This document shows, piece by piece, positions 1,467 through 37,666 of a stretch of 64,000 bases of DNA. The stretch spans positions 32,001-96,000 of the forward strand of contig CBDCTJ010000007.1 in assembly GCA_965222115.1 (NCBI GenBank), in the 5' to 3' direction. Every line of letters begins with the position of its first letter. The stretch's first letter is position 1. The notes beneath the pieces were generated by a model, which was given only the letters and a program-made list of their open reading frames with translations, did no database searches and was not told where the DNA came from. The translations under genes and the position numbers were made by a program. Source of the DNA: Planctomycetota bacterium. GTDB taxonomy: Bacteria > Planctomycetota > PLA2 > JAEUHO01.

Positions 1467-1490
1467 AAACCCAACACGCTCAGCTCCGTT
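1467..1490 (+). promoter_or_regulatory. Candidate ECF sigma promoter (AAAC-N16-CGTT), possibly autoregulatory
   Basis: aaac at 1467-1470, 16-nt spacer, cgtt at 1487-1490; GTG at 1499 lies 8 nt downstream; the same geometry recurs at 32258-32281. Confidence 0.5.
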
Positions 1491-1614
1491 CAGTCTAGGT
1501 GAGTCTTGATGACTCGTTGGAGGGTCTCTCGTTTCCTCGTCATCCTCACCGCCCGATATCAGCCGCCCCTCGGCCTGGATCGAAGACGCGCTTGAGCGAC
1601 TCGAGGCACCGCTT

Positions 1615-2193
1615 GTGCGCTACGCCAAGCGGCTGCTTGGCGGCGATACGGAACGGGCGCGTGACGTGGTGCAGGAGTCGTTTCTGCGACTCTGTCGTGA
1701 GGCACGACGCCTGGGGGTTGAACCCGAGCGACGCGAGCAGTTGATCAAGCATGCGGATGAGTGGCTCTACCGGGTTTGTCGCAATCACGCCATCGACATT
1801 TTACGGAAGGAGAAGCGTATGCACACGCTCACCGACGCACTACTCGTTGCGAACGAGTCGCCGACGCCGGACGCTGCGGTCTCACGATCCGCCACGTCGA
1901 TATCCTCACCACCGGGAGCACTGCTCGAAGAACAGGAACGTCGCCGAACGATTCAAGCGTCGATACGACAACTCAATCCGCGCCAACAAGAACTCGTGTT
2001 CCTCAAGTTCGAAAGCGGGCTTAGCTACAAGCAGATCGCGTCCATTACCCAGCTCTCTACGAGCAATGTGGGCTACATCCTGCACACCGCAATGCGTGCC
2101 CTACGGCAATCGCTATCGACTTCATCCGCGTCCCCACCAACATCAACTTCCATGGCCGCCGCTTCGATCGCCGCCACCGAAAGGAGTGCCTAA
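1615..2193 (+). CDS. ECF-type sigma-70 RNA polymerase sigma factor (5' end uncertain, possible frameshift)
   Basis: Region 2 (ARDVVQESFLRL, WLYRVCRNHAIDILRKE) and region 4 (LNPRQQELVFLKFESGLSYKQIASIT); TAATG overlap with the next gene; sigma-like sequence AWIEDALERLEAPL continues upstream of the GTG. Confidence 0.9.
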   Translation: MRYAKRLLGGDTERARDVVQESFLRLCREARRLGVEPERREQLIKHADEWLYRVCRNHAIDILRKEKRMHTLTDALLVANESPTPDAAVSRSATSISSPPGALLEEQERRRTIQASIRQLNPRQQELVFLKFESGLSYKQIASITQLSTSNVGYILHTAMRALRQSLSTSSASPPTSTSMAAASIAATERSA

Positions 2194-5051
2194 TGTCTCT
2201 CCCTACTAACAGTTCGCCATTCGACGACGCGCGCCTTACCGCTTATGTGCTTGGCGAGTTGAATGAATCCGATCGATCCGCTTTCGAGATCGAGTTGAAT
2301 TCGAATCCGGCGTTGCAGACAGAACTCGAAGCGATGCAGTCAATTTCTGGCGATCTGCAAGCTGTGCTTGGGCAGGCTGTGATCGGACGGGCTGTGAGCG
2401 GAACGAGCGGCGAATCGCTCGGGCAGTTACAACGTGCGTCGGTGTTGAATGAAGCTACTGTCGCGGAAGAGGCCACACCAAGAACAACCAATCCCTGGTC
2501 GTGGGTGCCCATGGCTGCCGCGGCGATGATGTTGTTCATGGTGGGTGCCGTCGCAATGCTTGCGAGTAAACAACAGTCATCTGTTTCGCGAGAGGAAGCG
2601 AGACAACAAGGCGTCTACTTCAGCGTAAACGATGGCGATGTTGAGGGGCGCGTACTTGACAGCATGAAGCTCGATGAGTTTCGCGAGGTCGACCGCGCGT
2701 TGAAATCGTCGAAAAAGGGCGGGGCTGTGATGCATGACGATTCGACGGAGGTCACCGAACAAGAGGTCGTAACCGAAGAGCCTCTAATTGAGGATGAAAG
2801 TCTGGCCGACCATCCTGAAACCGACAATGATCTCCCCTACCAAGAATCGTTTGGCGAAACGACAGGGACGGCGCCCGCCCCCTTCAATGGCCCATCGACG
2901 AATGGTGTGATTGGCGTGTCAGGAGGCAGTGGCGGCGCGTTTCAAGGACGAGGAGCAGGGCGCGCTCCAGCTGCCGACCGAAGAATTCCTACAGCAACTC
3001 GGCCTGTGGGTAAGGCGGCGCCTAACCCACACATCAACTCGGGTCCTATGCCTGCTACGACTCCCGCGCCAGGCTCATCTCCGCTTCCCCTGGGCCCGAC
3101 GACGCCTCCTGTGTCGCCTAGCCCTATGTTTCGGCGAGGGCCAGGCTCCGGATCGGGGAAGGCCGCCTCGCCCGTCGCTGGAACAATTGTGCTTGATCCG
3201 CGTTCGCAACCTGTGGAGTCAACGGTATCCACACGGGTTCTCTCTCGCCCGGTGTCTGCTCGCACCGAGACCATACCGGCCGAGTATCGAACGATTCAAG
3301 AGCGGGTGCGATTGGCTGACGGCACGTATGGGACTCGCGAGCGACAAGTCCTTGTTCGCCCTGCAAGTACTCGCCAGATTCCTATACCCGCACAGTACAT
3401 GACGATTCAAGACAGAGTCAAAGTGCAACGGGGCCTCCATGGAGGATTGTTTGTTGTAGCGCGACTTCAATCCGTGGACGGCAAGCAGGTTTGGGTGCAG
3501 CTTCCGACGCCCGTTCCTCATTCGCTCGCGGGCGAGGCTCCCGGCACCGAACAATACGATCCGATTCCGGAGTCGCCATTCGTTGACGCGAAGACGCACC
3601 ACACCTCAACGTTTAGCGTTGACGTGGATACAGCCAGTTACGCCAATATGCGCCGTTTCTTGAGCTCGGGTCGTTTGCCGCCGCACCACGCGCTGCGCCT
3701 CGAAGAGTTGATCAACTACTTCGACTACGGCTACGACGCCCCCACGGCGAAGGACAAGCACCCCTTCAATACGCATGTGCAGATCGTTACGTGCCCGTGG
3801 AATCCACGTCATCGCTTGGCGCGCATTGCCTTGAAGGGACGCGAGATTGACCGCAAGGCGCGGCCCGCCAGCAACTTGGTGTTCTTGGTGGATGTGTCGG
3901 GCTCGATGGCCGCGGCCAACAAGTTGGGCCTTGTCAAGAAGAGCCTCACCATGCTCGTCGAGCAACTCGATGAACGCGATCGCATTGCCATTGTGACGTA
4001 TGCCAGCTCGTCGGGCGTTGCACTTGCCTCCACACCGTGCAATGAGCAGGGCAAGATCATGGCGGCCATCAACGCGCTTTCCGCGGGTGGCAGCACCAAC
4101 GGCGAAGCGGGCATCAAGACGGCCTACGAGACGGCCAAAGCCCACTTCATCAAGGGCGGCACCAACCGCGTGGTGCTCGTGACCGACGGCGATTTCAATG
4201 TGGGCACCACCGACAACGACGAGTTGACCGCGCTCATCAATCGCAACGCCAATGAGAAGAAGATCTTTCTTTCGATTCTTGGCTACGGCATGGGCAACTA
4301 TCAAGATGGTCGCATGGAGGCGCTGTCCAACAAGGGTCAGGGCAACTATGCCTACATAGACTCAGTTGACGAAGCTCGCCGTGTGTTGGTTGAGAAGCTC
4401 ACCGGCACGTTGCTCACGATTGCTAAGGATGTGAAGGTACAGGTCTTCTTCAATCCACAGAAGGTGGCGTCGTATCGTTTGATTGGGTATCAGAACCGCG
4501 CCCTTGCCGCCGCCGACTTCAACAACGATCGCAAAGACGCAGGTGACGTCGGTGCGGGACATGAAGTGACGGCGCTGTATGAGTTGGTGCCTGTAGGCAC
4601 GCCCCCGCCGTCTCCGGAGGTGGATCCCAATCCTTTTGTGAATGCACCCAAGCAGGACGCCACCACGCCCGTCAAGGCCGAGAAGGACGACGCGCCCGCG
4701 CGTCCCGAAAGCTTCCGCTTGCGCCTGCGTTACAAGCTGCCCGAGAGCGACACGAGTGTGCTCATGGAGCAGGACGTAGCCGATCAGGGATTGACGTTTG
4801 ATAAGGCCGATCGTGCGTGTCAGTGGGCCGCCTCCGTGGCCTTGTTCGGTCAAGTGCTTCGCGGTTCGCGCCATGTGGGCAGCGGTGCGCTCGACGCAGT
4901 ACTCGAGACGGCTTCCGCATTAGCCGAAGACGCCGACACGCTCTACGAAGTCGCGCCGGAAGACGAATCGCTGCGCGGCAAGGGCGCCGAACTCAATCAG
5001 TTTGTCGAACTCGTGAAGCGCGCCAAGCAGCTAGGTGCAGGCAGCCGGTAG
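2193..5051 (+). CDS. Anti-sigma-like / TM / vWA (YfbK-type, DUF3520) protein
   Basis: N-terminal DARLTAYVLGEL anti-sigma-like helix bundle, a TM helix and a long low-complexity linker; then STFSVDVDTASY, EELINYFDY, MIDAS DVSGSM, TDGDFNVG, TIAKDVKVQV and DAGDVGAGHEVTALYE motifs. Confidence 0.9.
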   Translation: MSLPTNSSPFDDARLTAYVLGELNESDRSAFEIELNSNPALQTELEAMQSISGDLQAVLGQAVIGRAVSGTSGESLGQLQRASVLNEATVAEEATPRTTNPWSWVPMAAAAMMLFMVGAVAMLASKQQSSVSREEARQQGVYFSVNDGDVEGRVLDSMKLDEFREVDRALKSSKKGGAVMHDDSTEVTEQEVVTEEPLIEDESLADHPETDNDLPYQESFGETTGTAPAPFNGPSTNGVIGVSGGSGGAFQGRGAGRAPAADRRIPTATRPVGKAAPNPHINSGPMPATTPAPGSSPLPLGPTTPPVSPSPMFRRGPGSGSGKAASPVAGTIVLDPRSQPVESTVSTRVLSRPVSARTETIPAEYRTIQERVRLADGTYGTRERQVLVRPASTRQIPIPAQYMTIQDRVKVQRGLHGGLFVVARLQSVDGKQVWVQLPTPVPHSLAGEAPGTEQYDPIPESPFVDAKTHHTSTFSVDVDTASYANMRRFLSSGRLPPHHALRLEELINYFDYGYDAPTAKDKHPFNTHVQIVTCPWNPRHRLARIALKGREIDRKARPASNLVFLVDVSGSMAAANKLGLVKKSLTMLVEQLDERDRIAIVTYASSSGVALASTPCNEQGKIMAAINALSAGGSTNGEAGIKTAYETAKAHFIKGGTNRVVLVTDGDFNVGTTDNDELTALINRNANEKKIFLSILGYGMGNYQDGRMEALSNKGQGNYAYIDSVDEARRVLVEKLTGTLLTIAKDVKVQVFFNPQKVASYRLIGYQNRALAAADFNNDRKDAGDVGAGHEVTALYELVPVGTPPPSPEVDPNPFVNAPKQDATTPVKAEKDDAPARPESFRLRLRYKLPESDTSVLMEQDVADQGLTFDKADRACQWAASVALFGQVLRGSRHVGSGALDAVLETASALAEDADTLYEVAPEDESLRGKGAELNQFVELVKRAKQLGAGSR

Positions 5052-5129
5052 GGCCTTCGAACCGAATTCACAATTGGTGCCGGGAGCGAATTGTGTGAAG
5101 CGCGCCAAGCAGTTGGGTGCCGGTACCCG
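5013..5129 (+). repeat. Imperfect direct duplication of the vWA gene 3' end
   Basis: gtgaagcgcgccaagcag at 5013-5030 and 5095-5112, followed by ctaggtgcaggcagccg vs ttgggtgccggtacccg. Confidence 0.75.
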
Positions 5130-5138
5130 ACAATCTCG

Positions 5139-5161
5139 AAAAAGGTGCCGGGTGCTTTTTT
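5139..5161. repeat. REP-like imperfect palindrome with GTGCCGG core
   Basis: aaaaaggtgccgggtgctttttt; related cores at 5077, 5117, 5813 and 51267. Confidence 0.55.
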
Positions 5162-5203
5162 GCAGGACAAGCACGCGTAGACGAACGCCCCTATCATGGC
5201 GCG

Positions 5204-5722
5204 ATGCGCTACCTGCTTGTACTCGCCGGACTGTTGGTCGCCGCGTGGGCGGTACATACGTTCGTCCTAGACCGTGAGGACACAGCGAACGAGCAGAATC
5301 CGGATGCGCCGCCGGGGTATCGCAAGCATGTTGCAGTCATCGATCCGTTTGCCGGTGACCGTGCCGCAGCCGAAGCCCTGGAAGCCAGCGCGGAAGGTAC
5401 CTACTTTGGCCAAGTAATCGTTGAGGACAACGACAAGGGACGCATCACAACAAACGTTACGCTTGAGCTTCGTGCGGAGAACGGGTTTCGACTTACGACC
5501 CAACGCGCTTGGAACTCCGGGCGCGACGGCAAAGTGCTCTCGGGCAAGTGGCACTTGCGCGGCGACCACTGTCGGCTCACCTACACCCACGTAAACGGCG
5601 AACCGATGAAGGAACGCCTGTCGGTCAAGAACCCATACGAGACCGACAAGATTACGTTCCCCGACGTTCCCGGCGCCGGATCTGTCGTGTTGCGTCGAAC
5701 AAAAATTTTGAATGTTCGTTGA
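5204..5722 (+). CDS. Hypothetical exported protein (beta-rich, lipocalin-like C-terminus)
   Basis: Signal/anchor MRYLLVLAGLLVAAWAVH; TLELRAENGFRLT...GKWHLRGD pattern; TATCAT 6 nt before ATG 5204. Confidence 0.65.
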   Translation: MRYLLVLAGLLVAAWAVHTFVLDREDTANEQNPDAPPGYRKHVAVIDPFAGDRAAAEALEASAEGTYFGQVIVEDNDKGRITTNVTLELRAENGFRLTTQRAWNSGRDGKVLSGKWHLRGDHCRLTYTHVNGEPMKERLSVKNPYETDKITFPDVPGAGSVVLRRTKILNVR

Positions 5723-5810
5723 GGTCCCCCGCCGTAGCGCGCCAACGTTTGTCCCATCCCTTCCCTGAATCCGAATCCTTTGCCGAACCCTCTCCCCCAA
5801 CCCTGCAAAT

Positions 5811-5827
5811 AAGTGCCGGGTGTAAAT
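5811..5827. repeat. REP-like intergenic repeat copy
   Basis: aagtgccgggtgtaaat is identical to 51265-51281; both copies lie between convergent genes. Confidence 0.6.
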
Positions 5828-5926
5828 GTTTGGGGATTTCACGAAAAAACGCGCGACGAGCACATGCCTCGCCGCGCGTTGCTTGGGATTTCGCGCGATC
5901 ATATGCCGAGCGATTCGTCTAAATGG

Positions 5927-6130
5927 CTAGTCCTTGACGATAAAGCTGACCTTCATGTTGACGCGGTACTCGACAACTTTGCCGTCTTTGACCTCCACCT
6001 TTTGCTCGTTAATCCAGGCACCGCGAATGCCTTTAATGGTCTTGGACGCGCGGGCGATGCCCTCGTCGATGGCTTCCTGGAAGCTCTTGGGCGAGGACGA
6101 GGAAATTTCTACTACCTTGGCTACGGACAT
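5927..6130 (-). CDS. Dodecin family flavin-binding protein
   Basis: 67 aa, SVAKVVEISSSSPKSFQEAIDEGIARASKT...EYRVNMKVSF; AGGAG RBS. Confidence 0.92.
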   Translation of the reverse strand: MSVAKVVEISSSSPKSFQEAIDEGIARASKTIKGIRGAWINEQKVEVKDGKVVEYRVNMKVSFIVKD

Positions 6131-6253
6131 GCTGTCTCCTTCATTGAACTAAACCCTAAGACGCATCACTCGTGCGGAGTGAGTGACGAGACGGAACGCG
6201 CCCCTCATGCGGGGGTGCGGAAATCGTTTTGGTTGGATCGACCGGAAAGCGCT

Positions 6254-6835
6254 CTACGCGCGCTCACGGCCTTGCGTGGGGAAACCCTTCCAACGCTTGC
6301 GGCGGGTGGTAACGGTTTCGAAGTCATCATCGTCGGACGTGGTCGAGCCTCCCGAACGCGCAGAGAGCGCACGGTCGATCGATAGTGCGCCGGAACCGCG
6401 CCACATGAGGGCTACGGCCATGGCGACCGCGAGAATGTGAAACTCGATGCCGTGATCCAAGCCTTCCTTACCCATCCAGTTAATGAACAAGCCGTTGTTC
6501 CAGTGGGCAAGGTAGGCAGCGGTACCCATTGTTGCGGCGATGCCGAGCGCTGCGACGCGACCAAAGAGCCCGAAGATGAGCGCGAGGCCTCCCAACGCTT
6601 CGGCGGCGATGGCGCAATAGACTTGCCATGGCTCGAGACCATAGCTTGCCGTCATGTGCTCTACGGTCTTTTCCAGTCCCTGCTGCATCTCGGCGGGGAC
6701 ACCCGTCATACCAATCTCGTCATAGATGCCTTCAATGACTTTGCCGGCACCGTGCGCCAACATCACAACGCCCAGTCCGAGGCGCAGAATCATGGTGGAA
6801 AACTCGTTGCGGGTTCGCATCAGGGCACGAAACAT
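6254..6835 (-). CDS. DoxX family membrane protein
   Basis: LRLGLGVVMLAHGAGK, EALGGLALIFGLFGRVAAL, GIEFHIL and GSGALSID motifs. Confidence 0.9.
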   Translation of the reverse strand: MFRALMRTRNEFSTMILRLGLGVVMLAHGAGKVIEGIYDEIGMTGVPAEMQQGLEKTVEHMTASYGLEPWQVYCAIAAEALGGLALIFGLFGRVAALGIAATMGTAAYLAHWNNGLFINWMGKEGLDHGIEFHILAVAMAVALMWRGSGALSIDRALSARSGGSTTSDDDDFETVTTRRKRWKGFPTQGRERA

Positions 6836-7014
6836 GACAGCACTCCGGGACTGTGCCCGGACGATCCCGGCGCACGAAAGGCGAGGGATAACACGAATCG
6901 AGGGTCGGACCGACGTTCGCCCGATGCGGACACGCCCCAGGTGCTATGCGGGCCCCCCATCGAGCCCTGCGGAGCCAAATTCGGCCCTTCCGGATGGCGT
7001 GGGCGCTGCCTGGG

Positions 7015-8757
7015 TTAGCGCCTGGCCGGCTGCTTTTTGGGCGCGCCTGCACGCCGCGCCCGCATGCGGACAATGCGCAACTCCCCGCCTTCCACGACCC
7101 AGTTGAGGAACATGAGTCCCACCACTTTATCGGCTTCGACGACGGACGCCATGCCGTGTTTGACGCGCAGACTCACGCGGTCGTAAGGCAGGGCGCGAAT
7201 GTTCTGGCCAATCTGGCGAAATGACTCGCGACGGCTGGCGAGAGCTTTTCGTGCCGCCGCTTGGCTGGCGGCGGGAAGGTAGTTGATGGCACCGGCATCC
7301 GACGTCATGGGGAGCCCCGTAGGCTTCTTCGGATCTCTTAAGGCTTGAAACGATGCCACGAGCCAGGTGCGCAATGCGGTCGCCGTGCCTTCAAGAAACG
7401 GATCGTTGGCGTCGTTGTAGACGGCAGCTTGGTCCTTTTCCGTGGCTTTGTGCCACTTGACGAACAAGTAGGAGGGATCCCCACCGCCGATGGTGATGGT
7501 CGCATCGAGGCGAGCATTCGCAGCACCGCCCTGACTAAAGATCACATCCAACGCAAGGGTCGATGGCGCTACGCGCGACGCCCTCGGGAACACGGCTTTC
7601 ATGGGCGCAACAACATTCTCGTACTCGCCGGGCACGCGCTTGGCCTTTGAGATATGCCCAACGAGTGTGGGGCTTCCATCCAGTGCCGCGTCGAAGGCCG
7701 CTTTGAGATCTTCCGCCCAACTGCGCACCTGGGCCGAAGCCTTCTGCCGCTTGAAGACCGACACCTTATGCGTTTCAGGTCGACGCGATGCCGCTTTCGC
7801 CGATCGTGTGGCCGCAGGCAAGTCTTGCAACTCGAGCGAAAACGCGTCGGGTGAGTTGGCTCCGTGATCGGGCCACGGCGTAGCGCGAGGCTTGGCGATG
7901 GGAATCGCGCCTTCGTACTTGCCGCTGGACGCCACCACGCCTTGAACATGTAGCACGGACAACACTTGAATCTTGGGACTTGCGGGCAAGGCACCAATGA
8001 TAGTTCGAACGCCAACACATCCGCCGCGGCGCAGGTAGTCCATGACGGTCACGGCGTCTTGCAATTCACAGTTCTGAGCAAAGCGACAAACAGCCACCAC
8101 GGGGCCCAGTCCCTCCTTTGCCGCTTTCTCCACCGCGAGTTCCGCAGCGCGATAGGCGAACTTTAAGTTCGAGGGCTTCTCCTGCTTATGAAGTTTGTGT
8201 TTCTTCTTCGCTTCGGTTGTGAGATCGGCGGTCTTATCGAGCACGGTCCGTAGTCGCACCGGCAATTTGGCGCCCCGTTTGCCCGTTGCGTCCCCCGCAC
8301 CCTTGCTGGGCAGAAAGAGCGGAAAGCCATACACCTTCCCATCCCCTTCGTGTCGTACGCGAATGCCAACTCGAAATATGCCCGCGCGTTGTGCCATCAA
8401 CCGCACCTGAACGACGTGACCCCAACGATGCCGCGCTGACGCGGTAATCCATAGCGAGTGCCCCGGCGTCTTTCCACGTTCTTTGAGTAGGGCCATCAGC
8501 GCTTTGGCGTCGTGCGTTCCCGGTACGCCACCCACGCGAAACGCGCCCCACTCATCGGTACGCCCCACCATTACGTGGGTCACGTTCTCTTTGCGAAGCG
8601 GCGCGCAAGTACCCGCCACGGGCAGATCTTGCGTGTAGATGGTCGGCACGCGCTCGGCGGCGTCGGCACTTGACGGGGAGAGCACGAATAAGAGTGCCCC
8701 CATCCATGCGGCCAGCATGAGAGGTCGTCGTCCGGGGTATGGGCGTTGAACGAGCAT
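7015..8757 (-). CDS. Hypothetical secreted protein with two ExbD/TolR-like periplasmic segments
   Basis: Signal peptide (LLFVLSPSSADA); segments WITASARHRWGHVVQVRLMAQRAGIFRVGI and CRFAQNCELQDAVTVMDYLRRGG; GAGG before ATG 8757. Confidence 0.55.
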   Translation of the reverse strand: MLVQRPYPGRRPLMLAAWMGALLFVLSPSSADAAERVPTIYTQDLPVAGTCAPLRKENVTHVMVGRTDEWGAFRVGGVPGTHDAKALMALLKERGKTPGHSLWITASARHRWGHVVQVRLMAQRAGIFRVGIRVRHEGDGKVYGFPLFLPSKGAGDATGKRGAKLPVRLRTVLDKTADLTTEAKKKHKLHKQEKPSNLKFAYRAAELAVEKAAKEGLGPVVAVCRFAQNCELQDAVTVMDYLRRGGCVGVRTIIGALPASPKIQVLSVLHVQGVVASSGKYEGAIPIAKPRATPWPDHGANSPDAFSLELQDLPAATRSAKAASRRPETHKVSVFKRQKASAQVRSWAEDLKAAFDAALDGSPTLVGHISKAKRVPGEYENVVAPMKAVFPRASRVAPSTLALDVIFSQGGAANARLDATITIGGGDPSYLFVKWHKATEKDQAAVYNDANDPFLEGTATALRTWLVASFQALRDPKKPTGLPMTSDAGAINYLPAASQAAARKALASRRESFRQIGQNIRALPYDRVSLRVKHGMASVVEADKVVGLMFLNWVVEGGELRIVRMRARRAGAPKKQPARR

Positions 8758-8896
8758 GGGTGCCTCGAGTATCGGCGTTGAGAAAGTAGGGAATCGGCCG
8801 CACGGCAGCCGCCAGAGCGGACGCGCAGTGAGCAATTAGCTACTATCGGCCCGTCATGGCCGTGTTTCAACCATCGCCCAAGGGACAAAGATCTCC

Positions 8897-23332: not shown

Positions 23333-25552
23333 ATGAAAACTGGCATCGTGTCGGCTGTGCTCTTGGCCGTGCCCGTGGCCATGATTTGGTTTGCGATGGT
23401 TCCGCGCAAATCAGCGTCGAAACACTCAATCGAGACGATCCACCGATCACAGACGCCTGCAAAGGCGAGTCCAGAACTCATCGAGACCGTGCTACGTGGC
23501 ACCAATATCATGCGCTGGCCGGTGCGAAATGAAGGACACGGCATGCCGCCGAATGGCAGCTTGGTTCTTCTACGTCAACACACTTCGGAGCATGATGGCA
23601 GCGTACCGTCGCGCGGCATCGTGCATGACGGCCACATCGTAGTCGCGGACTGGACTTCGGGATTTTGGCAAGCACGGGCCATCATCCCCGGCTTTGGCTG
23701 TGCGCTGCTTCGTGCCGTGGATCCGGGTAGACAGGGATCACCCGTCGCATTTCGACCACTGGGTTCGGTAACGGTTACGGTCAAGGCCATCACGGGCAAG
23801 CCTCTTCGCGGCGCGCGTGCCACAGTGCTTGAGACCCATGCACAGGGCATGAATCGTTTCGCTAAGACCGACGCGCAGGGTCGCGCTCACATTACCGATC
23901 TTTATAGCGGGCCCGATGCGATCGTCGCATGCCGTATTACGGGCTGGGGCAATCTACCAATCGACCGCACATTTCGAGACATTGACTTGCACATAGGAAA
24001 CGCGTCACTGGAACACATCGTTCCGGCGTTCGTTTCGATCCCACTCCACCTTCGAGTCACCGTGAATGGAGCGCCACCGCCAGCCGACTTTGATGAGCTA
24101 GCGAACATCTACATTCATCGCGCAGAGGATCCCAAGGCGAAGCAGGGCGATGATGACCAAGAGTCGTTGGAAGATGCACTCAGAGAGACACTTGAGAAGC
24201 GCGCTGACTATCCGCGGGGCAATCTGAACTGGCACGACGGGCAGCAGGTGCGGCTGCGCCCGGACAGTCACGGCGTATGTAGCTTTCGTATCACCGCATT
24301 CGCCAGTGCAAACCGCATTGAGCTGTCGTTGGAAAGCAGGCGGTATCGAGACCCAGACCTGAGCGCCTTTGAGATCAAGGACGATCAACCAGTCCAGGTT
24401 GAACTAGCGCTCGCAACCGAGGGTTCTGCGCACGTCCACGTACGCCCGCCCAAGGATGGCTTTCACTACATCACCCTTGAACGTTGGAACGACGACGCAG
24501 GCGCCTGGATGGTTGGACGTAGCCACAATGAGACGGTGGACGAGATCGTTCCCGATGCGCGTGGCCTAGCCATGTTTTGGGACCTCCCTGTCGGTCGCTA
24601 TCGCGCGGTCGATACGATTTCTCTAACTGCGTCGGCGCCGTTCGACGTGACCGCGGATGGTGGCGCTGCTAAGGCAGATCTCGATCTCAGTCAGTGCGGC
24701 TGGGCGCGCGGCGTGGTTGAAGTACCTGATGGCGGAGCGTTGGCAGCCGTACGGCTCCTCCGCAGCGACACCGTGGGCTACAAGTTCGCTATGCCGCACC
24801 GCAAATGGAAGCGTATGAGATTCAGTCGAGAAACAGGAGCGTTTCGTTGCCGCGTTCCAACGGGTCGCGCCATCGATCTCGCGGTGCGACATCCGATATT
24901 GAGCCCGCATCAAACGCAAGGATCCATTCGTATCGAGCAACCCGGAGATGACCACCGGCTTCAGCTTGTGCGCACGGCGGGTACGCTCCTTCGGTTTAGT
25001 GAACCCCTTCCTGAGCCATCCGACACACTTCGCGTGAGCAGACGACCCCGTCCCGAAGGTGCGCCCAACTGCCATGAGGTATCGCTAGTTTCACGTACGG
25101 GAGTTAGGAAGACCTCCGTCAGTTACCTCAACGCCGCTAGAGATACATTGGAGTTCGGCGCAGTGCCTACGGGCCAGTATACGATTGAGATCGACTCGCA
25201 AACAACGGCACCTATCATCGTTCCCAACGTAACGATTACCGACGGAATCAATGAGGTCGAAGATGTTCAGTGGTCACCCGGCGCCACGCTGCGCATCACA
25301 TTCACATACAGCGACTCGCGTTTGAAGAAAGAAACACCGATCCATCTACTGAGCCTCGATGCCACACCAATCAATCCGCCTCGGTTCAAGAGGTTTGGTA
25401 CGCTCACGCGTGACGGCGGCGAAATTCGTGGACTCGCTGCCGGTATGTACCGCGTATCATTTCGCGACATACTTGGCGAGCTCGATTCTCAGACCGAAGT
25501 TATCGAGTTTGACGGGAAGACAGAAATTAAGCGGAGCTTTCCCATTCGCTAG
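23333..25552 (+). CDS. Membrane-anchored protein with carboxypeptidase-regulatory-like (Ig-like) repeats
   Basis: N-terminal TM; GSVTVTV..GKPLRGARA..KTDAQGRA, LPVGRYRA, VPTGQYTI and GLAAGMYRV strand motifs. Confidence 0.7.
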   Translation: MKTGIVSAVLLAVPVAMIWFAMVPRKSASKHSIETIHRSQTPAKASPELIETVLRGTNIMRWPVRNEGHGMPPNGSLVLLRQHTSEHDGSVPSRGIVHDGHIVVADWTSGFWQARAIIPGFGCALLRAVDPGRQGSPVAFRPLGSVTVTVKAITGKPLRGARATVLETHAQGMNRFAKTDAQGRAHITDLYSGPDAIVACRITGWGNLPIDRTFRDIDLHIGNASLEHIVPAFVSIPLHLRVTVNGAPPPADFDELANIYIHRAEDPKAKQGDDDQESLEDALRETLEKRADYPRGNLNWHDGQQVRLRPDSHGVCSFRITAFASANRIELSLESRRYRDPDLSAFEIKDDQPVQVELALATEGSAHVHVRPPKDGFHYITLERWNDDAGAWMVGRSHNETVDEIVPDARGLAMFWDLPVGRYRAVDTISLTASAPFDVTADGGAAKADLDLSQCGWARGVVEVPDGGALAAVRLLRSDTVGYKFAMPHRKWKRMRFSRETGAFRCRVPTGRAIDLAVRHPILSPHQTQGSIRIEQPGDDHRLQLVRTAGTLLRFSEPLPEPSDTLRVSRRPRPEGAPNCHEVSLVSRTGVRKTSVSYLNAARDTLEFGAVPTGQYTIEIDSQTTAPIIVPNVTITDGINEVEDVQWSPGATLRITFTYSDSRLKKETPIHLLSLDATPINPPRFKRFGTLTRDGGEIRGLAAGMYRVSFRDILGELDSQTEVIEFDGKTEIKRSFPIR

Positions 25553-25588
25553 CAAGACCGCCCTTTGCAATCTGATAGACTGGCAGGC

Positions 25589-27046
25589 ATGAGGGCGGGC
25601 ATCCTATCGGTCATTCTTTCGGCCATCGTGTTGGCCATCACGTGGATGGGTATTCAGTACGGCTTCGTACCGATCCGAGATACCGCACGCACGAACGCAT
25701 CATCGACGCGGTACGGCGTCACCGATGAGTCGGTCGGTCCAGACATGGCGAGTTCGGCATTGATCGAAACGACGCTACGTGACGAAGGCGCCGTGCGTTG
25801 GCCGATCGTCAACGGAGGACACGGCATACCGCCCAATGGGTGCCTCGTGCTTTTGAGCGACCATCGAACAAGCGAGTTCGCGACTTTGCCATCGAGTGGT
25901 ATTGTGCACGATGGCCACGTCGTCGTGCCTGCATGGCCGCGTGAGATTCAGTACGCCCGGGCAATGATTCGAGGCTTTGGCTGCGCGCTTCTTGAAATAA
26001 ATGAACAGGCAACTGCGGCAAAGCCGGTGTCCTTTCGACCGTCCGGATCCGTGTTCGTAACCGTGCGGGACACTGCGGGTGTGCCGCTATCGGGCGTGCG
26101 CGTTTCGCTGTTCGAGCGCTATACGCTCGGCACCGCCTTCATGACCAGAACCGATGGCCAAGGACGCGCTCGAATATCAGATCTTTACAATGGGCCGGGT
26201 GCCCGGGTGGAGTGCCGTCTTACGGGATGGGGCAACTTGCCCATTAGTAAGCGTTTTAGGAACATCAAGCTTGATGAGGGCGACGCCGTCATTGAGCATG
26301 TCGTCCCTAAGGTTGTGACTCTTACGGTTTCACTCGACGTAACTACCAACGGCCATGTTCCATCGCGCGCTTTTACGGAACTCGCCGACGTGTATGCCTA
26401 TCGCAGTGAGGAAACCAAAGGCACCGTCGAACACGCCCTGAGAAAGGCGCACAAGTTGTATAGAGAGCGGCTTCGCTCGGTCGGCAGGTCGTTTCCTCTG
26501 GAGACGGACGTCGAGCAATTGGAGCGACTGCGCAACGTATTCGATGATTTCGGTGGATTGGACCGAATCCTCAGGGCGCGCGGCGGAGCCGTCGTACAAC
26601 TGCGACCCGATACAGACAGTGTATGCACGTTCAAGGTGCGCGCATTCGAGACGGCCGACCGGCTGCGCGTCGTCGTTCAACATGACCAATACATGTTGCC
26701 GGAGCCGTGTGATGTGGCGCTCGATGGGAAACGCCACGTACGCGCCCGCCTTGGACTCGCCACGATGGGTGTTGTCCGCGTACACGTTTCGTTACCGGAC
26801 GACGAAGAGCACGGGCTCGTACTTGAACGCTGGAATGTCGATAACGAGGAGTGGGAGGTGTGGACAGGTTCGGAGGGTTTGAATCGCCACCCGATCCGAG
26901 CCGAACGAGGCAAGGTCGCTACGTTTTGGGATGTGCGGGCGGGGCGATATCGGGCTGCCGACGCCTTGTCGGGCAAGCACTCTGCCCCGTTCCAGGTCAA
27001 CACGGTGGAGCGCCCCATCACGGTCGCTCTAGATCTGAGTGAGTGA
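25589..27046 (+). CDS. Tandem paralog of 23333-25552, C-terminally truncated
   Basis: Shared blocks RWP..N.GHG.PPNG, GIVHDGH.VV, GFGCALL, TGWGNLPI, LERWN, FWD...GRYRA; it stops where the paralog continues for about 285 aa. Confidence 0.7.
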   Translation: MRAGILSVILSAIVLAITWMGIQYGFVPIRDTARTNASSTRYGVTDESVGPDMASSALIETTLRDEGAVRWPIVNGGHGIPPNGCLVLLSDHRTSEFATLPSSGIVHDGHVVVPAWPREIQYARAMIRGFGCALLEINEQATAAKPVSFRPSGSVFVTVRDTAGVPLSGVRVSLFERYTLGTAFMTRTDGQGRARISDLYNGPGARVECRLTGWGNLPISKRFRNIKLDEGDAVIEHVVPKVVTLTVSLDVTTNGHVPSRAFTELADVYAYRSEETKGTVEHALRKAHKLYRERLRSVGRSFPLETDVEQLERLRNVFDDFGGLDRILRARGGAVVQLRPDTDSVCTFKVRAFETADRLRVVVQHDQYMLPEPCDVALDGKRHVRARLGLATMGVVRVHVSLPDDEEHGLVLERWNVDNEEWEVWTGSEGLNRHPIRAERGKVATFWDVRAGRYRAADALSGKHSAPFQVNTVERPITVALDLSE

Positions 27047-30927: not shown

Positions 30928-30982
30928 AATTCCGGCTTGAGCGCACGAAAGCCACATGCTCCATCCGTTGGCGGAATCGAGC

Positions 30983-31867: not shown

Positions 31868-32257
31868 GACAGGGCTCCGCGTGGTCGGCAGACAATCTGG
31901 ACCATTCAGAATCCTGAGCCGCGAAGACGGTCGAATTTCAAATTGGGTCTTCGTCCGGATCACAATGTGCGCATACTCTTCTGCCCCAGGTCGTCTAACT
32001 CACACACAAGACGACCGATCGCGCGCTCACATAGGAGACTCCAGTTAGGGGAATCAATGTACAACCCGCGTGGTGCACATCGGCCAGCGTCTCGTATCGA
32101 TTCTTTGAGTATCGACGTCATGCCCGACACACGATTCGCGAGCGACAGCTGGCGATTTCGCTTGGGAGGGATGGTATCGGTACGATTCTTCGAGCATTGG
32201 CGGTAGATGAGTAAGCCACTCACCGGCCTCCAAGTTTGTAGCCCCTTGACTGCGAAT

Positions 32258-32281
32258 GAACCTTGACCGCACGATCACGTT
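32258..32281 (+). promoter_or_regulatory. Candidate ECF sigma promoter (GAAC-N16-CGTT), leaderless geometry
   Basis: gaac at 32258-32261, 16-nt spacer, cgtt at 32278-32281; ATG 32291 lies 9 nt downstream with no SD. Confidence 0.5.
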
Positions 32282-32290
32282 CTACCCCCC

Positions 32291-32638
32291 ATGCGTAGCC
32301 TGGTTCTGATTGTCGGCGTCGTTGGGATGGCATTCGGCTCGATGTCGGTCTTTGCCACCTCAGGGACGATTGCGTCCCAGGGAATCGGTGCACTCACGCC
32401 CCCGCTTTCCTACGTCATTGGCCCCGCCGACGCGCCAACAGGCGGCGAGATCGTCATAGGGTTGTTGATACCCGAGAGCGACGGCAGATACGTAAAGGAC
32501 GTTCTGGGGCCGGCGCGCTACGAGGCGTATCTGAAACGGGAAGCCGAGATCGCCAGAAGTCCGGCCAAGGACGACCTCGGGGATGCCACGTTTGAGATCA
32601 TCGAAGAAGATGTCGCATATCACCATCGACACGAATGA
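32291..32638 (+). CDS. Signal-peptide ORF; probable N-terminal part of the downstream alpha-2-macroglobulin
   Basis: Signal-like MRSLVLIVGVVGMAFGSMSVFA; same frame as 32726, with only TGA 32636-32638 interrupting. Confidence 0.65.
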   Translation: MRSLVLIVGVVGMAFGSMSVFATSGTIASQGIGALTPPLSYVIGPADAPTGGEIVIGLLIPESDGRYVKDVLGPARYEAYLKREAEIARSPAKDDLGDATFEIIEEDVAYHHRHE

Positions 32639-32725
32639 ACTGATCGTTGGCACGCGAGTTCGCGTCAGAGACTTATCGACAGAGTTTTTGCGATTTGCCG
32701 TATTCGAGTTCGATTTGTAGAACTC

Positions 32726-35700
32726 ATGGCCTCAGAGTGTTCGTCCGTGCCGTTGCTTCTGCTACCCGACCGCAAGCTCCTCCTCCACGAACGAGTCAAT
32801 CTCGACGCCTATGTGGCTGGTGGCGGTCGTGTTGTGAGCACCCCATGGTCTCAACACGCAATTGGATCCACCGCGAATGGTCTCACGATGCAAGACGTGG
32901 TCCCAACGACCTCCTCTGCCCACGCCATTGCGCGCATGGTTGCCGAGTCGATACAAAAATCGCAACACATCATTCACATCGATTCCGATCCCACGGAGTT
33001 GATCCGTGCAAACCGTCATGGAGACGAGATAAGCGTACAACTCGCCGAGGCTCCCAATCAGGCTTTCTTAACGCGCGCCGACGGCTCACGACTCGATTTA
33101 GGGATAAAGCCTGCCCGCACGCTTCGCTTTGTAAGTCCAACGGGAAACAAGCATCCGCTTCACGTATCGCTTTGTGTCGATGCGAATCGTAACGGGGTGA
33201 TGTTTCGTCGATCCTGGACACTAGAGCAACTCGTCGGCATCACCGACGCGAGGTTCCTAGCCTCTTCGGAGGCGTACGCCGGCGGAACGTTTGCGGTTCG
33301 CGCAATCTACACCAATTCAAAGTCTAGAGCCCCCGTAGCCGGTCATAAGGAGGTGATCAAGCTGGTGCAAGCGAATCGCGTGCTTGCACAGACTGTGAGT
33401 CCATCCAACGATGCGGGCATCGTCAATGCTCGGCTATGGGTTCCTCATGACGCCAACGCGGGATCCGCCACGCTGCATGTGGGCACTGACACGCGTCCCG
33501 TCACGGTGAAACGAAGCGTTCGTGTATCCCTAGTAACCGATCGCACGCTCTATAAAGAAACCGACCGTGTGCACGCACGCGTCATGGTCCATGAAGTTCC
33601 CAGTGGACGCCCAGCGAGAGGGCGAACCGTCACGCTACGGTGTGGAAGAATCAAGAAAGACGTTGTCACTTCAAATTTTGGCATTGCATCAGCCTCCTTT
33701 GAGCTCATCAATGAATCAGTGGGAACCTCCAAAATCTCGGCCGCCGTCGATGGGGCGTTTGCGACTTCGAGTTTTCGAGTGACCGCGTATGAAACTCCCA
33801 CGTTTCGAGTCAACGTCACACCCGAGACGCTGCACCTCGACAAAGGACAAAGCGGGACAGTCGAGGTCACGGTCACGACCTTGAGTGGCAAGCCACTCGC
33901 AGGAGCTCAGGTTCACTTTGAACCCTGGTGGGGAATGCGCACCGAGAATCAGAACATGAAGACAGATCGTGAGGGCCAGACATCAACAACGGTACGTAGA
34001 GAGGGTCGGCTCCGGGACCGAGGTGTATGGGTCCATGTCACCGACGCCGATGGTCGAACGCTAACTCGCGAAGTACATGTCAGACGTGCCACCACCGCGG
34101 CGCCCATTCGCGTCCGCGCGCTCTCCGAGCTGGTAGCCGGACAACCTGGCACTTTCAGCGTGCATGCGAAGGGAAGGCGCGAAATCATACTCACGATCGA
34201 CTTCAAGAAACGGCTCCGAGTGGCACTCGATGGCGACGGGAACGGTCTGTTTGAGGCGACACCCAAATCGAACGTTGTTTTCATTGGTGGAGCGGGCTTT
34301 CGTCCTCGCTCGTTTCCTGTACACGTTGCAGACGCTGAGCGTCCAGGACCCACGTTGATGCTTGATCGACGTATCGCCAACGTGGGTGACCTACTCACCG
34401 GCAAGATCGTTGGACCCGATGGCACCGTGCTGCTCGACGTGCTTCGCGATGACGTGATCATTCGTACGCTTGCCGCGCATATCAAAGACGGACAAGCCAA
34501 GCTTTCCGTTCCCCTCGAACCTGATCTCGCGGGCCATCTCACGATTCGCGCAGCATCAACGCCCCAAAAGCGAACTCGTGGATCCCTAGTGCGCGTTTTG
34601 GTTGGCCGCGGACGAACGCTTTCCGTAGAAGCAAAGTCGCGTGCCGAGTCGTACCGGCCCGGCGAGACGGCCAGGCTCGATGTAAACGTTCGCGACCCGA
34701 GAGGCAGACCCGCACCAGGTGTACTCGGCTACTGGGCCATCGATCAAGCCGTGCTCGACCTGTCTTCGTGGAGTGATGGCAATGAATCCCGTTTTGACCT
34801 CGCTAGAGACAACGAGCAAAAGACGTTACTCAAACTGAAGGACAGTAACGATTACCGTTCGGCCGTCGTGCGCGTGCTGGGCGGTATCCAGAACCTGGAT
34901 AAGTACAACAAGGGAACGTACTCAGTCGGTCGCGTTCGCACACAACGTATCGAGGCAAGGAAGAGGAGCGTCAAGGCTGCTAGAGCATGGATGAAAGCGC
35001 TCAGAACTCGGGGGGCCGAGGCACTGGCTTCGGTGCCTCTGTCGCGATTGCGAGCAACCTATTCGTTGCGGGAAACCGTGCGTTGGCTAATTCGGCGTAG
35101 AGCGTTGGACGCAACGGCATTGATCGATCCGTGGGGCACACCGCTCTTAGTTCGAAACGCTTGGAAGAATGTTAAGATATACGACGAGCAAGGCGGCGAT
35201 CGTCCACGACAATGGTACAGCTACACATTTGAGCGCGCGTTCCCCTGCCAATCGGCCGGGCCCGATCGTCAGATGAACACGATGGATGACATACACCTCG
35301 CGTGGCATGTGTATCAACCGTGGGGCACGTGCAGCAAGGCTTTACCGGGCTCATTTTGGCGACTCATGGCGGACACCAAGCGAGCGCTCACCGAAGACCG
35401 GAAAACAGAGATTGACTCAGGTGCCATCGAGCGTGCTGGCGGGACGAATATCGGATCGTTAATGAATGGCACGATCGGTATTGGTGGCGGCTCGGGCGGC
35501 GCCTTTAAGGGCCGAGGGGGAGGTCGTGACCTGGGTACGGGTGGTGGTGGTCGCCGCAAATATGAAGAACCTGTGAAACACGTTCGTAGCAACTTCCTAC
35601 CCACGCTCTGCTTCGTGCCTGAAGCCATCGTGGGGCCCGACGGGAAGGCAGAACTCAAGATCGACCTTGCGGACAACATCACGACATGGAAGACGCGCCT

Positions 35701-37666
35701 CGTAGCATCCACAGTCGAGGGCGCGACGGGCGTTGGCTATGCCGACATCGTTGTGGAGCAACCGCTACACGCAACGCCTTGGGTCTCACCTCGTCTCACC
35801 GATGGGGACGAGTTGGAATTGCCCGTTGCCGTACGCAATGGGACCGATCAACCCATGAACGTGTCACTCCACATCGAGACGAGCGAGCCACTCGATGTCG
35901 AAGGCGATTCGCGTGCTCGAGTAAACGTCCCCGCGCGAGGGACTGGCGCTCACCGCTTCCGCATTCGTGCAAGCGGTCATGGGAAGTCCACGATCAAGAT
36001 CCGCGCACAATCGAAAGACAAAATCGACATCGCAAAGCACACCGTCACAGTTCGGCGCGATGCAAGAGAAGTAATTGCTTCCGAATCGACGCTGCTGCAT
36101 GCCGGAACTTCGTGGAAGCCTTCAATCGCGTTGTCGGGCACGGAGCCCGTTGAAATCACACTCTACCCAAGTGCCATGGCAGACGTCGTTGGTGGATTTG
36201 AGGGACTCATTCGAAAGCCAAGCGGTTGCTTCGAGCAAACGTCATCCACGCTTTATCCCATGGTGCTTGCGCTTGACTATCTGCGACGCTCCGGCCAAGC
36301 CCATGCAGGGCTTGAAGATCGCGCCCGAAAGCACGTAGCGAGTGGCTATCAACGCTTGCTTGGTTTCGAGGTACGTCGGTCACCTGGCGGGTTCTCTCTC
36401 TTCGGCCACAGTCCAGCAAGCACGTTTCTCACCGCCTATGGATTGATGGAATTTACCGACATGGCGCGCGTACACGAGATCGACGCCGATTTGCGGCCGC
36501 GCATGATCAAGTTCTTGCGGGGTCGGCAAGACAAGGACGGCTCATGGGGTCATCCGGCACGCCCCGCACATCAAGAACTCCGTTCGCACGGAAAGCATCC
36601 AAGGTTCAACAGTACGGCGTACACCGCATGGGCGATTGCCAAGGCCGGCGAATCTACGGACCGAGCACTTGAATGGATCCAAGACCGCGTAGACGAGATC
36701 ACGTCACCCTACTCCCTCAGCCTCGCTGCGCTGGCGTTTTTAGAGCGTAACCCAGCGTCGTCAACCGGTGCTACGCTCGTTTCGCGGCTCGCTGCCATGG
36801 CAAGGGCAAAGAAAGAATCAGTCACGTGGGAATCTGAATCCCCCACCGGACTTGGTGCTCGAGGTCGAGTGGCCCGTATTGAAACGTCGGCCCTCGCAGT
36901 GCAAGCCATTTTGAAAGAACAACATCACGTTGACACCGCAAACCCTGACATCGCAAACCGTGGCCTCGCCGGGCTGATTCAAGCGCGCGGTGCCGACGGA
37001 CGATTCGGAACGACACAGAGTACGATTCTCGCGCTGCAAGCATTACTTGCCGCTGATGTATCCTTCAACAAAGGAGGTTCGTGCGCCCTGAGCATTAGGA
37101 GCGGCGAACGAGAAGTCGCTAGACAGACCATGACGCCGGACACATCAGACATCATACGCATGAGTTTCAAAGCGAGTCCGGGCGAAGACGTAAGCGCAAC
37201 AACGAAGGGCACACGATCCATTCGCATGAGCGCGTCACAGAAGTCATGGGTATCGTGGAGCGAGGCTACGAGAAAGAGCGGACGTGTTTCACTCAACATC
37301 AAGTACCCCTCTCATGTGTTGGAAGTGGCCCGCCCCGCTTCTGCCCAAGTGACGATTTCGAATGTGAGCAAGAAAACAGCTTCACTCGTGACCGCCGAGA
37401 TTGGCATTCCGCCAGGGTGTGACATCGAAACTCGGAGGATTCGAGCCAGCAACCCCAACGCTCAGTTCCTAAAACGCATCGAACGAACTGAGGACGCCAT
37501 CGTGCTGTACTTGCTCAACTTAAGACCGGATCAAATACGCCAAATCAAGATCCCCTTCGTTCCGCGCCATCGACTCAACGTCAGGACCACTCCCTCCACG
37601 GCCTACGAGTACTACGTCCCTCACGAGGCCGTGATCGTGCCGCCTCAGCGCGTGCGAGCGGAGTAG
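32726..37666 (+). CDS. Bacterial alpha-2-macroglobulin family thioester protein
   Basis: MG2 (LVTDRTLYK), YRPGET..IDQAVL, VRSNFLPTLCF..DLADNITTW, thioester PSGCFEQTSS, FGTTQSTILALQAL, AYEYY.P. Confidence 0.9.
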   Translation: MASECSSVPLLLLPDRKLLLHERVNLDAYVAGGGRVVSTPWSQHAIGSTANGLTMQDVVPTTSSAHAIARMVAESIQKSQHIIHIDSDPTELIRANRHGDEISVQLAEAPNQAFLTRADGSRLDLGIKPARTLRFVSPTGNKHPLHVSLCVDANRNGVMFRRSWTLEQLVGITDARFLASSEAYAGGTFAVRAIYTNSKSRAPVAGHKEVIKLVQANRVLAQTVSPSNDAGIVNARLWVPHDANAGSATLHVGTDTRPVTVKRSVRVSLVTDRTLYKETDRVHARVMVHEVPSGRPARGRTVTLRCGRIKKDVVTSNFGIASASFELINESVGTSKISAAVDGAFATSSFRVTAYETPTFRVNVTPETLHLDKGQSGTVEVTVTTLSGKPLAGAQVHFEPWWGMRTENQNMKTDREGQTSTTVRREGRLRDRGVWVHVTDADGRTLTREVHVRRATTAAPIRVRALSELVAGQPGTFSVHAKGRREIILTIDFKKRLRVALDGDGNGLFEATPKSNVVFIGGAGFRPRSFPVHVADAERPGPTLMLDRRIANVGDLLTGKIVGPDGTVLLDVLRDDVIIRTLAAHIKDGQAKLSVPLEPDLAGHLTIRAASTPQKRTRGSLVRVLVGRGRTLSVEAKSRAESYRPGETARLDVNVRDPRGRPAPGVLGYWAIDQAVLDLSSWSDGNESRFDLARDNEQKTLLKLKDSNDYRSAVVRVLGGIQNLDKYNKGTYSVGRVRTQRIEARKRSVKAARAWMKALRTRGAEALASVPLSRLRATYSLRETVRWLIRRRALDATALIDPWGTPLLVRNAWKNVKIYDEQGGDRPRQWYSYTFERAFPCQSAGPDRQMNTMDDIHLAWHVYQPWGTCSKALPGSFWRLMADTKRALTEDRKTEIDSGAIERAGGTNIGSLMNGTIGIGGGSGGAFKGRGGGRDLGTGGGGRRKYEEPVKHVRSNFLPTLCFVPEAIVGPDGKAELKIDLADNITTWKTRLVASTVEGATGVGYADIVVEQPLHATPWVSPRLTDGDELELPVAVRNGTDQPMNVSLHIETSEPLDVEGDSRARVNVPARGTGAHRFRIRASGHGKSTIKIRAQSKDKIDIAKHTVTVRRDAREVIASESTLLHAGTSWKPSIALSGTEPVEITLYPSAMADVVGGFEGLIRKPSGCFEQTSSTLYPMVLALDYLRRSGQAHAGLEDRARKHVASGYQRLLGFEVRRSPGGFSLFGHSPASTFLTAYGLMEFTDMARVHEIDADLRPRMIKFLRGRQDKDGSWGHPARPAHQELRSHGKHPRFNSTAYTAWAIAKAGESTDRALEWIQDRVDEITSPYSLSLAALAFLERNPASSTGATLVSRLAAMARAKKESVTWESESPTGLGARGRVARIETSALAVQAILKEQHHVDTANPDIANRGLAGLIQARGADGRFGTTQSTILALQALLAADVSFNKGGSCALSIRSGEREVARQTMTPDTSDIIRMSFKASPGEDVSATTKGTRSIRMSASQKSWVSWSEATRKSGRVSLNIKYPSHVLEVARPASAQVTISNVSKKTASLVTAEIGIPPGCDIETRRIRASNPNAQFLKRIERTEDAIVLYLLNLRPDQIRQIKIPFVPRHRLNVRTTPSTAYEYYVPHEAVIVPPQRVRAE

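Follow-up and report, generated by a model that had tools for sequence, protein, structure and literature searches.

A peptide cassette shared by an alpha-2-macroglobulin bait, toroid tethers and an anti-sigma linker in Planctomycetota, and the two systems that it probably joins

Introduction

A 64,000-nucleotide stretch of a Planctomycetota genome (assembly GCA_965222115.1, contig CBDCTJ010000007.1, positions 32,001 to 96,000; hereafter the window, G000:C7:32001-96000) carries two loci that raise a question of regulation. The first, at 1.5-5.05 kb, encodes an extracytoplasmic function (ECF) sigma factor and a membrane anti-sigma factor with a von Willebrand factor A (vWA) domain. The second, at 32291-37666, encodes an alpha-2-macroglobulin (A2M). 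All window coordinates are given on the forward strand. Do the two loci form one circuit? The first-pass annotation of the window proposed a "sense-and-trap" circuit, in which a protease cuts a peptide in the anti-sigma factor and frees the sigma factor, and the sigma factor then transcribes, from an AAC-N16-CGTTC promoter shared by both loci, an A2M that carries the same peptide as bait.

Herein, the window and its genome (G000; 4.55 Mb, 7 contigs, G+C about 59%) are compared with related genomes, all of them uncultured Planctomycetota metagenome-assembled genomes (MAGs). The comparison points, with a probability of about 0.6, to two separate systems, the sigma pair and an A2M under a wider promoter class, joined by a reused peptide cassette.

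Results

The peptide cassette

The peptide that drew attention to these loci was confirmed. NGVIGVSGGSGGAFQGRG, encoded from nucleotide 2901 in the anti-sigma gene, and NGTIGIGGGSGGAFKGRG, encoded from nucleotide 35465 in the A2M gene, are identical at 14 of 18 residues. Both placements proposed for it also stand. The anti-sigma copy sits past the transmembrane helix in the protein sequence, on the extracytoplasmic side. The A2M copy lies at the bait position, between the Pfam bait-region domain (residues 552-679) and the A2M domain (residues 963-1049), and directly precedes HVRSNFLPT, which aligns with HVRKHFPET of CD109. A motif of the HVRKHFPET type follows the bait in human A2M. The A2M cassette (NGTIGIGGGSGGAFKGRGGGRDLGTGGGGRRK, 35465-35563) therefore has the character of a bait region, an exposed segment between the bait-region and A2M (MG7) domains. 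In all nine orthologues that cover it, it is conserved more strongly than any other part of the insert, which varies elsewhere, the flanks of the cassette included.

The whole cassette spans about 75 residues, with an acidic stretch, DHPETDNDLPY.ESFGE and APF.GP..N..IG.GGG.GG.F.GRGG. In the anti-sigma factor it covers residues 181-262 (2733-2978, core 2901-2954) and reads as an acidic stretch, DHPETDNDLPYQESFGE, APFNGP and NGVIGVSGGSGGAFQGRG. Three copies are found in G000, in the anti-sigma factor, the A2M and a toroid protein (L052). Toroid-family proteins are membrane proteins with an alpha-alpha toroid domain, and their matches to SQHop_cyclase_C are weak (24-35 bits); TED_complement is also matched weakly by one paralogue. 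L052 shares its N-terminal half with the anti-sigma factor (64% identity) and its C-terminal tail with the A2M; the 64% refers to the anti-sigma cassette and the toroid tether encoded at G000 C7:1362204-1362434. No thioester motif was seen in the L052 sequence.

In most of the relatives searched there are matches that cover the query in its cassette part only, in open reading frames (ORFs) of 242-3537 residues. The architectures include a transmembrane helix followed by cassette and toroid, VIT-vWA-cassette-toroid, cassette-VIT, and large bMG-type A2Ms. In the last group, too, the cassette separates the bait-region domain from the A2M domain, and it thus occupies the bait position in two A2M families. 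In two of the proteins, L142 (G006:C15) and L148 (G008:C5), VIT and vWA domains precede the cassette, as in inter-alpha-trypsin-inhibitor heavy chains, and in L148 a toroid-domain match follows it. A search of the 82-residue cassette against 5.8 billion proteins returned the query alone from 172 candidates and is uninformative on distribution.

Few vWA anti-sigma factors carry the cassette. With a strict cassette pattern, a survey of 34 vWA loci in 24 relatives, several of them cut by contig ends, found it only in G003 and G001:C114. Weaker cassette matches lie beside vWA matches at G009:C5 and G011:C365. Sequence comparison indicates that this is a real homologous cassette reused across the planctomycete lineage, and the alternative that the first-pass annotation itself had offered, a lineage-wide Gly-rich element, was right on distribution. 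Given the scattered architectures and the small number of cassette-bearing vWA anti-sigma factors, the cassette is a mobile element, and in the anti-sigma factor it represents a toroid-type tether gained recently and locally. The cassette models as disordered, with a predicted local distance difference test (pLDDT) score of 22-31 and no secondary structure (9 sequences, mean pLDDT 52). Its conserved place in A2M baits is compatible with, and leaves open, a role in protease cleavage.

The A2M promoter and its wider class

The sequence upstream of the A2M gene reads TGAACC (32257-32262), 15 nucleotides, CGTT (32278-32281) and 9 nucleotides before ATG 32291, which together make a predicted ECF-type promoter at 32257-32290. 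The same order, GAACC-N15/16-CGTT, then exactly 9 nucleotides, then an ATG that opens a signal peptide, was found at 6 of 6 A2M orthologue loci (L001-L006), whose proteins are 37-39% identical to the window A2M. The relatives with the conserved promoter are G006, G008, G010, G019 and G024. Its GAAC-like -35 and CGT-like -10 boxes stand 16-17 nucleotides apart, as in ECF promoters. Such a non-coding motif, kept unchanged in its distance to the start of divergent A2M genes, is strong evidence of an ECF-type promoter, and the earlier reading of the A2M-side site as such a promoter is borne out by this conservation. The 9-nucleotide distance from CGTT to ATG implies that the predicted A2M mRNA is leaderless or nearly so.

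The motif extends well past A2M genes. GAACC-N15/16-CGTT has 102 matches in G000, and it precedes 5 of the 9 toroid-family genes of this genome (L048, L052, L053, L060 and L083) at apparently intergenic positions; a sixth match falls inside the L084 frame. In relatives, 18 of 20 cassette-toroid genes have (T)GAACC-N15/16-CCGTTGGA about 140-250 nucleotides 5' of the start. A survey of 68 toroid loci with enough flank, from named Planctomycetota MAGs, placed the motif in the sense upstream region of 58, compared with 5 of 68 for the antisense strand and 0 of 68 for the coding sequence. The -10 box reads CGTT in all 6 A2M promoters and in the 18 near-start toroid motifs, and CGTC in none of them. 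We infer from these motifs that the GAACC...CGTT class would be a family-wide envelope regulon under an ECF sigma factor, probably not the sigma factor of the window.

Several gene arrangements around the motif were also observed. Toroid genes are often in tandem, cassette-bearing and cassette-less, each with its own GAACC...CGTT. Examples are L052 and L053 (G000 C7:1361934-1367307) and, in relatives, the pairs L161/L168 and L162/L167. Genes resembling MoxR-type AAA ATPases, with a Walker A motif recognized by eye, start 7-8 nucleotides past the promoter motif at L120 (G004:C124) and L133 (G032:C188), and a MoxR-like gene, also assigned by eye from its Walker A motif, lies 70 nucleotides past a related GGAACC...CGTT site at G000 C7:2333511. 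Two adjacent genes for CarboxypepD_reg-like repeat proteins in the window (23333-27046) are without GAACC...CGTT; similar proteins at G000 C7:2020120 and C7:1348274 do follow such motifs.

The sigma gene and its upstream region

The ECF sigma gene lies at 1513-2193. Its product is an ECF (group 4) sigma factor, with Sigma70_r2, Sigma70_r4 and Sigma70_r4_2 matches over their cut-offs and a TIGR02937 match of 79.8 bits, also over the cut-off. The start codon is ambiguous. The frame is open from 1513 and its earliest canonical start is GTG 1615, with no ATG, GTG or TTG in this frame between the two positions. The N-terminal helix AWIEDALERLEAPL, conserved in the 16 sigma orthologues examined, is encoded 5' of GTG 1615, so that the frame lacks a canonical start codon before region 2.1. 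ATC 1558 aligns with the ATG position of the orthologues. Translation of the sigma gene may begin at a non-canonical codon; alternatively, the gene could be damaged or decaying.

The AAC-N16-CGTTC pattern that had been taken to link the two loci is present at both, at 1468-1491 and 32259-32282, in each case one base to the right of where it had been placed. As a bare pattern, it is not special in the window: 4 matches were counted against a mean of 3.30 in shuffled sequences, and at least 4 occurred in 41 of 100 shuffles. The genome-wide scan of G000 on both strands gave 235 matches against about 123 expected from base composition. The start codon reported 8-9 nucleotides after the pattern holds for the A2M gene, at ATG 32291. 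At the sigma locus, GTG 1499 is in another frame than the sigma gene and opens an overlapping ORF of 81 codons.

The sigma orthologues suggest a different element. CGTC[TC]AAGA or a close variant was found, with a loose pattern, in 11 of 17 regions upstream of sigma orthologues, and the CGTC[TC]AA-type -10 lies 100-139 nucleotides before the codon equivalent to VRYA. The G000 region itself is equally readable as CCAAC-N16-AGTCTAGG, 122 nucleotides before the gene and 5 nucleotides downstream of the CGTTC. This alternative sigma promoter, (CC)AAC-N16-AGTCTAGG at 1473-1499, fits the CGTCTAAG-type element both by its sequence and by how far it lies from the gene. The sigma orthologues thus appear to use a CGTCTAAG-type -10, unlike the A2M and toroid promoters with their CGTT. 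Elsewhere in G000, further ECF sigma genes (C3:445635, C7:1461572 and C3:~195.0 kb) are preceded by AAC-N16-(C)GTCTAA or GCCTAAGA; a CGTCTAAG-type -10 is therefore common among the sigma-gene promoters of this genome.

Candidate sigma factors for the A2M promoter

The proposal of one regulon linking the sigma locus and the A2M gene was not upheld, as neither the promoter class nor the cassette is specific to these loci and toroid genes share both. In G000, the sigma pair and the A2M gene lie 30 kb apart, with unrelated genes between them (for M1 and M17 aminopeptidases, MgtE, a citrate transporter and TatD, among others), and in G006, G008 and G019 the sigma pair and the A2M orthologue are on separate contigs. 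A YfbK_C protein, the type found with the window sigma, was detected in 0 of 5 genomes searched (G005, G021, G023, G012 and G025; completeness 82-94%). Despite this, G005, G023 and G012 keep the motif upstream of a cassette-toroid gene. The nearby window sigma is probably not the A2M regulator.

G000 has 64 Sigma70_r4_2 matches, of which 57 exceed the cut-off, and several sigma genes were considered. The sigma at C7:2806049 follows GAAACG-N15-CGTTGGA; it was rejected, since its homologues in relatives are at most 45% identical and the motif stands beside few of their loci at inconsistent positions. The sigma at C7:142604 was rejected as well, the motif being 560 nucleotides upstream, within a gene on the opposite strand. 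At C3:~194.9 kb, the motif spans the stop codon of the sigma gene, ahead of the next gene, and is not decisive. A scan of the relatives with GAACC-N14/15-CCGTTGG returned toroid genes and a few other genes and no sigma gene. A scan of G000 with AAC-N15-17-GTCTA[AG] matched other ECF sigma genes and did not match the A2M gene.

The anti-sigma/vWA protein

The anti-sigma gene (2193-5051) encodes an anti-sigma domain, one transmembrane helix, the cassette, a Pro-rich linker and the domains vWF_A, VWA and YfbK_C, the last formerly named DUF3520. The N-terminal domain matches NF052375 (antisigma) over residues 15-155 with an E-value of 7e-12, below the cut-off of that model. The window pair, with a single-transmembrane anti-sigma factor carrying vWA and DUF3520 (YfbK_C) at +1, is an ordinary ECF226/289-like ECF sigma factor with a membrane anti-sigma factor, of the kind described for these groups. 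Passages of the ECF classification (PMC7826278, Casas-Pastor et al. 2021) give vWA and DUF3520 anti-sigma factors for ECF226 and ECF289. According to the same passages, ECF226 is found in Acidobacteria, Planctomycetes and Verrucomicrobia and has no conserved promoter or genomic context, and ECF289 is found in Proteobacteria with a -10 of CGTCTxA. This -10, as those passages give it, resembles the CGTCTAAG element of the window-sigma orthologues. The window pair was compared with the groups by domain description. It differs from both groups in its linker cassette, of which the passages of PMC7826278 drawn on here make no mention, and in that the G000 sigma gene is without a canonical start ahead of the conserved N-terminal helix.

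The A2M gene of the window

The product of the A2M locus belongs to the A2M family, as indicated by Pfam matches to MG2, A2M_BRD, A2M and TED_complement and by a CxEQ motif. Its best solved-structure matches are CD109, TEP1 and A2ML1; the match to YfhM is weak. ATG 32291 is the ancestral start, and the signal anchor that it opens aligns with the N-termini of the orthologues. The gene is interrupted in the window: its first 115 codons (32291-32638; signal anchor and N-terminal region) end at an in-frame TGA (32636-32638, codon 116), and the remainder (32639-37666) continues in the same frame, with the next ATG at 32726, through MG2, the bait-region domain, the insert, the A2M domain and TED. 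An uninterrupted A2M gene that includes the export signal is thus not present. Contigs from three runs, which cover two samples of one study, read identically at the TGA, at depths of 3-5. The orthologues are continuous through this region, and the 1,675 codons past the TGA are open. These observations suggest that a nonsense mutation arose recently, or else that the codon is read through, and the local copy may be inactive. Selenocysteine at this position was considered and found no support: the downstream fold is no better than shuffled sequences (z -0.10), and the orthologues show no conservation at the aligned position.

TGA at the thioester cysteine of orthologues

The thioester motif of the window A2M, GCFEQ (36224-36238; residues 1167-1171 of the ORF from 32726), has the Cys codon TGC at 36227-36229. 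This codon was read at 10 orthologue loci. Cys is present at 4 of them, G000 included (GCFEQTS.T[LV]YPM), and the other 6 have TGA (G-TGA-[FM]-EQTS.AVCPMV). The TGA positions equivalent to 36227-36229 are L002 nt 5002 (minus strand), L003 nt 4855, L004 nt 5041, L006 nt 4399 (minus strand), L007 nt 696 (minus strand) and L010 nt 2293. The TGA forms have an extra Cys at -4 (CPHG) in 5 of 6 and a Cys at +9 in 6 of 6, where the Cys forms have Tyr. In a survey of 40 genomes of the order, one in-frame TGA in the TED piece was found in 9 of the 13 genomes with a match in the orthologue range (E 3.9e-32 or better to the TED piece), compared with 0 of 10 weaker TED-piece matches (ORFs of 477-1787 residues).

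The machinery for selenocysteine is present in 5 of 5 genomes, G000 included, with selB over the cut-off and tRNA-Sec at 69-72 bits. A consensus hairpin 8 nucleotides past the TGA, a candidate SECIS element, has one compensatory pair; its folding energy is no better than that of shuffled sequences. Identity at synonymous codons past the TGA is 130/180 (0.72) in TGA forms and 29/65 (0.45) in Cys forms. It is also higher before the site (80/143 and 17/45), and closer kinship of the TGA forms therefore explains part of the difference. The thioester-site TGA in A2M orthologues is probably a selenocysteine at the reactive centre. Literature searches returned nothing relevant on selenocysteine at an A2M reactive centre, and the words "macroglobulin" and "thioester" are absent from the main text, supplements aside, of two selenoproteome papers of 2026 (PMC13188914 and PMC13326102).

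Discussion

From the observed sequences, domain order, conservation and distribution, a model of promoter function, regulon and cleavage can be proposed. The sigma pair would be one system, an ECF sigma factor and its anti-sigma factor with vWA and YfbK_C, with its own CGTCTAAG-type -10 in orthologues. The A2M gene would be transcribed separately, from (T)GAACC-N15/16-CGTT, a putative promoter class common to toroid genes across related Planctomycetota. The cassette would join the two. It would serve as the bait of two A2M families, as a membrane-proximal toroid tether, as an internal linker of VIT-vWA-toroid proteins and, in few genomes (G000 and G003), as the extracytoplasmic linker of a vWA anti-sigma factor. 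In each place it may be an exposed, protease-susceptible segment, and cutting it would fire the A2M trap and release the tethered domains.

The sense-and-trap circuit of the first-pass annotation is a rival explanation. The circuit draws on the sites in G000, which both read AAC-N16-CGTT, and on an extracytoplasmic anti-sigma cassette whose A2M counterpart is at the bait. The comparative evidence shows otherwise for the circuit as a specific claim. The bare pattern occurs in the window about as often as chance predicts, GTG 1499 belongs to another frame, and the sigma orthologues use CGTCTAAG, an element that the G000 site fits 5 nucleotides downstream; the 6 A2M promoters and 18 toroid motifs, with CGTT throughout, do not share it. 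The strict pattern finds no cassette in the examined vWA anti-sigma loci of G006, G008, G019 and G024 (none from G010 was among them), the toroid promoter persists in genomes where the YfbK_C search found nothing, and synteny of the sigma pair and the A2M gene is absent in relatives. Such a circuit is very unlikely. A broader version, in which the cassette is a common protease-cleavable trigger and a single protease fires the traps, frees the toroid domains and clips the G000 and G003 anti-sigma factors, seems quite improbable. If the cassette-bearing anti-sigma factor is clipped, the ECF sigma factor would sense proteolysis through a copy of the bait of the trap, whichever genes it activates.

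The cassette itself can be explained in two other ways. It could be a flexible, low-complexity spacer spread by domain shuffling with no role in cleavage or signalling, its placement in A2Ms being a quirk of the lineage. Its Gly-rich composition, its unstructured model, its many unrelated architectures and its sporadic presence in anti-sigma factors suit this explanation. Plain spacers, however, do not keep residues such as those of APF.GP..N..IG.GGG.GG.F.GRGG across protein families; in 9 of 9 A2M orthologues the conservation of the cassette far exceeds that of the insert around it, and two A2M families have it at the same bait position. This reading is unlikely. Alternatively, the cassette could be the site of a dedicated endogenous enzyme that matures or sheds envelope proteins, with GAACC...CGTT marking an envelope-biogenesis regulon. 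A strongly conserved, fixed motif is more readily explained by one cognate enzyme than by a bait of broad spectrum, and the toroid cassette directly follows the transmembrane helix, where shedding would free the domain. On the other side, no candidate enzyme was found linked to cassette, toroid or A2M genes, and the A2M cassette occupies the very place where cuts by foreign proteases would be expected. We regard a dedicated processing site as an unlikely explanation.

Several observations weigh against the preferred reading of two separate systems joined by a reused cassette. The regulon is drawn from motif conservation, and no cognate sigma factor was found in searches of G000 and the relatives. 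An [AG]AAC-N16/17-CGT[TC] site at a plausible distance precedes only about 3 of the 64 sigma genes of G000, the window sigma among them, and the window sigma therefore remains a candidate in this genome; its site does read CGTT. Both genomes with the cassette in a sigma-linked anti-sigma factor, G000 and G003, also have an A2M orthologue. Cassette-bearing anti-sigma factors may be under-counted owing to contig-end cuts at vWA loci, and the weaker matches in G009:C5 and G011:C365 bear on the same count. The structure model of the cassette is shallow, with 9 sequences. Conserved baits are unusual for A2Ms, and the cassette may have a function other than that of a bait.

Known systems show which parts are familiar. 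The window A2M shares the MG domains, bait-region domain, A2M domain and TED with CxEQ of E. coli YfhM/ECAM, CD109, TEP1 and A2M. It differs from them in a bait that is a conserved Gly/Arg-rich cassette common to non-A2M proteins rather than a variable one, in a 280-residue insert between the bait-region and A2M domains, in the ECF-type, predicted leaderless promoter, and in TGA codons, at codon 116 in the local copy and, in many orthologues, at the thioester Cys. The cassette partners resemble the SQHop_cyclase_C-type toroid proteins of Planctomycetota in their weak matches to that domain, and differ in being membrane-tethered through the cassette, behind the putative GAACC...CGTT promoter. 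Regulated proteolysis of anti-sigma factors occurs in RseA/DegS, RsiW/PrsW and RsiV. The window anti-sigma factor is likewise a single-pass protein, whose extracytoplasmic part could be clipped and intramembrane proteolysis could follow. It differs from these cases in that no site-1 or site-2 protease was identified for the window pair, and cleavage at the cassette is hypothetical.

Conclusions

Bacterial A2Ms are thought to guard the envelope against foreign proteases, and their baits are usually variable. A conserved bait that is reused in membrane tethers and in an anti-sigma factor would indicate that the protease threat, or else a processing enzyme, is a defined one, and the cassette would offer an easy way to find protease-responsive proteins in Planctomycetota. 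To our knowledge, almost no ECF regulon is known in this phylum; (T)GAACC-N15/16-CGTT defines a candidate regulon with predicted leaderless members. The TGA at the thioester Cys of the orthologues suggests that some of these macroglobulins carry selenocysteine at the reactive centre.

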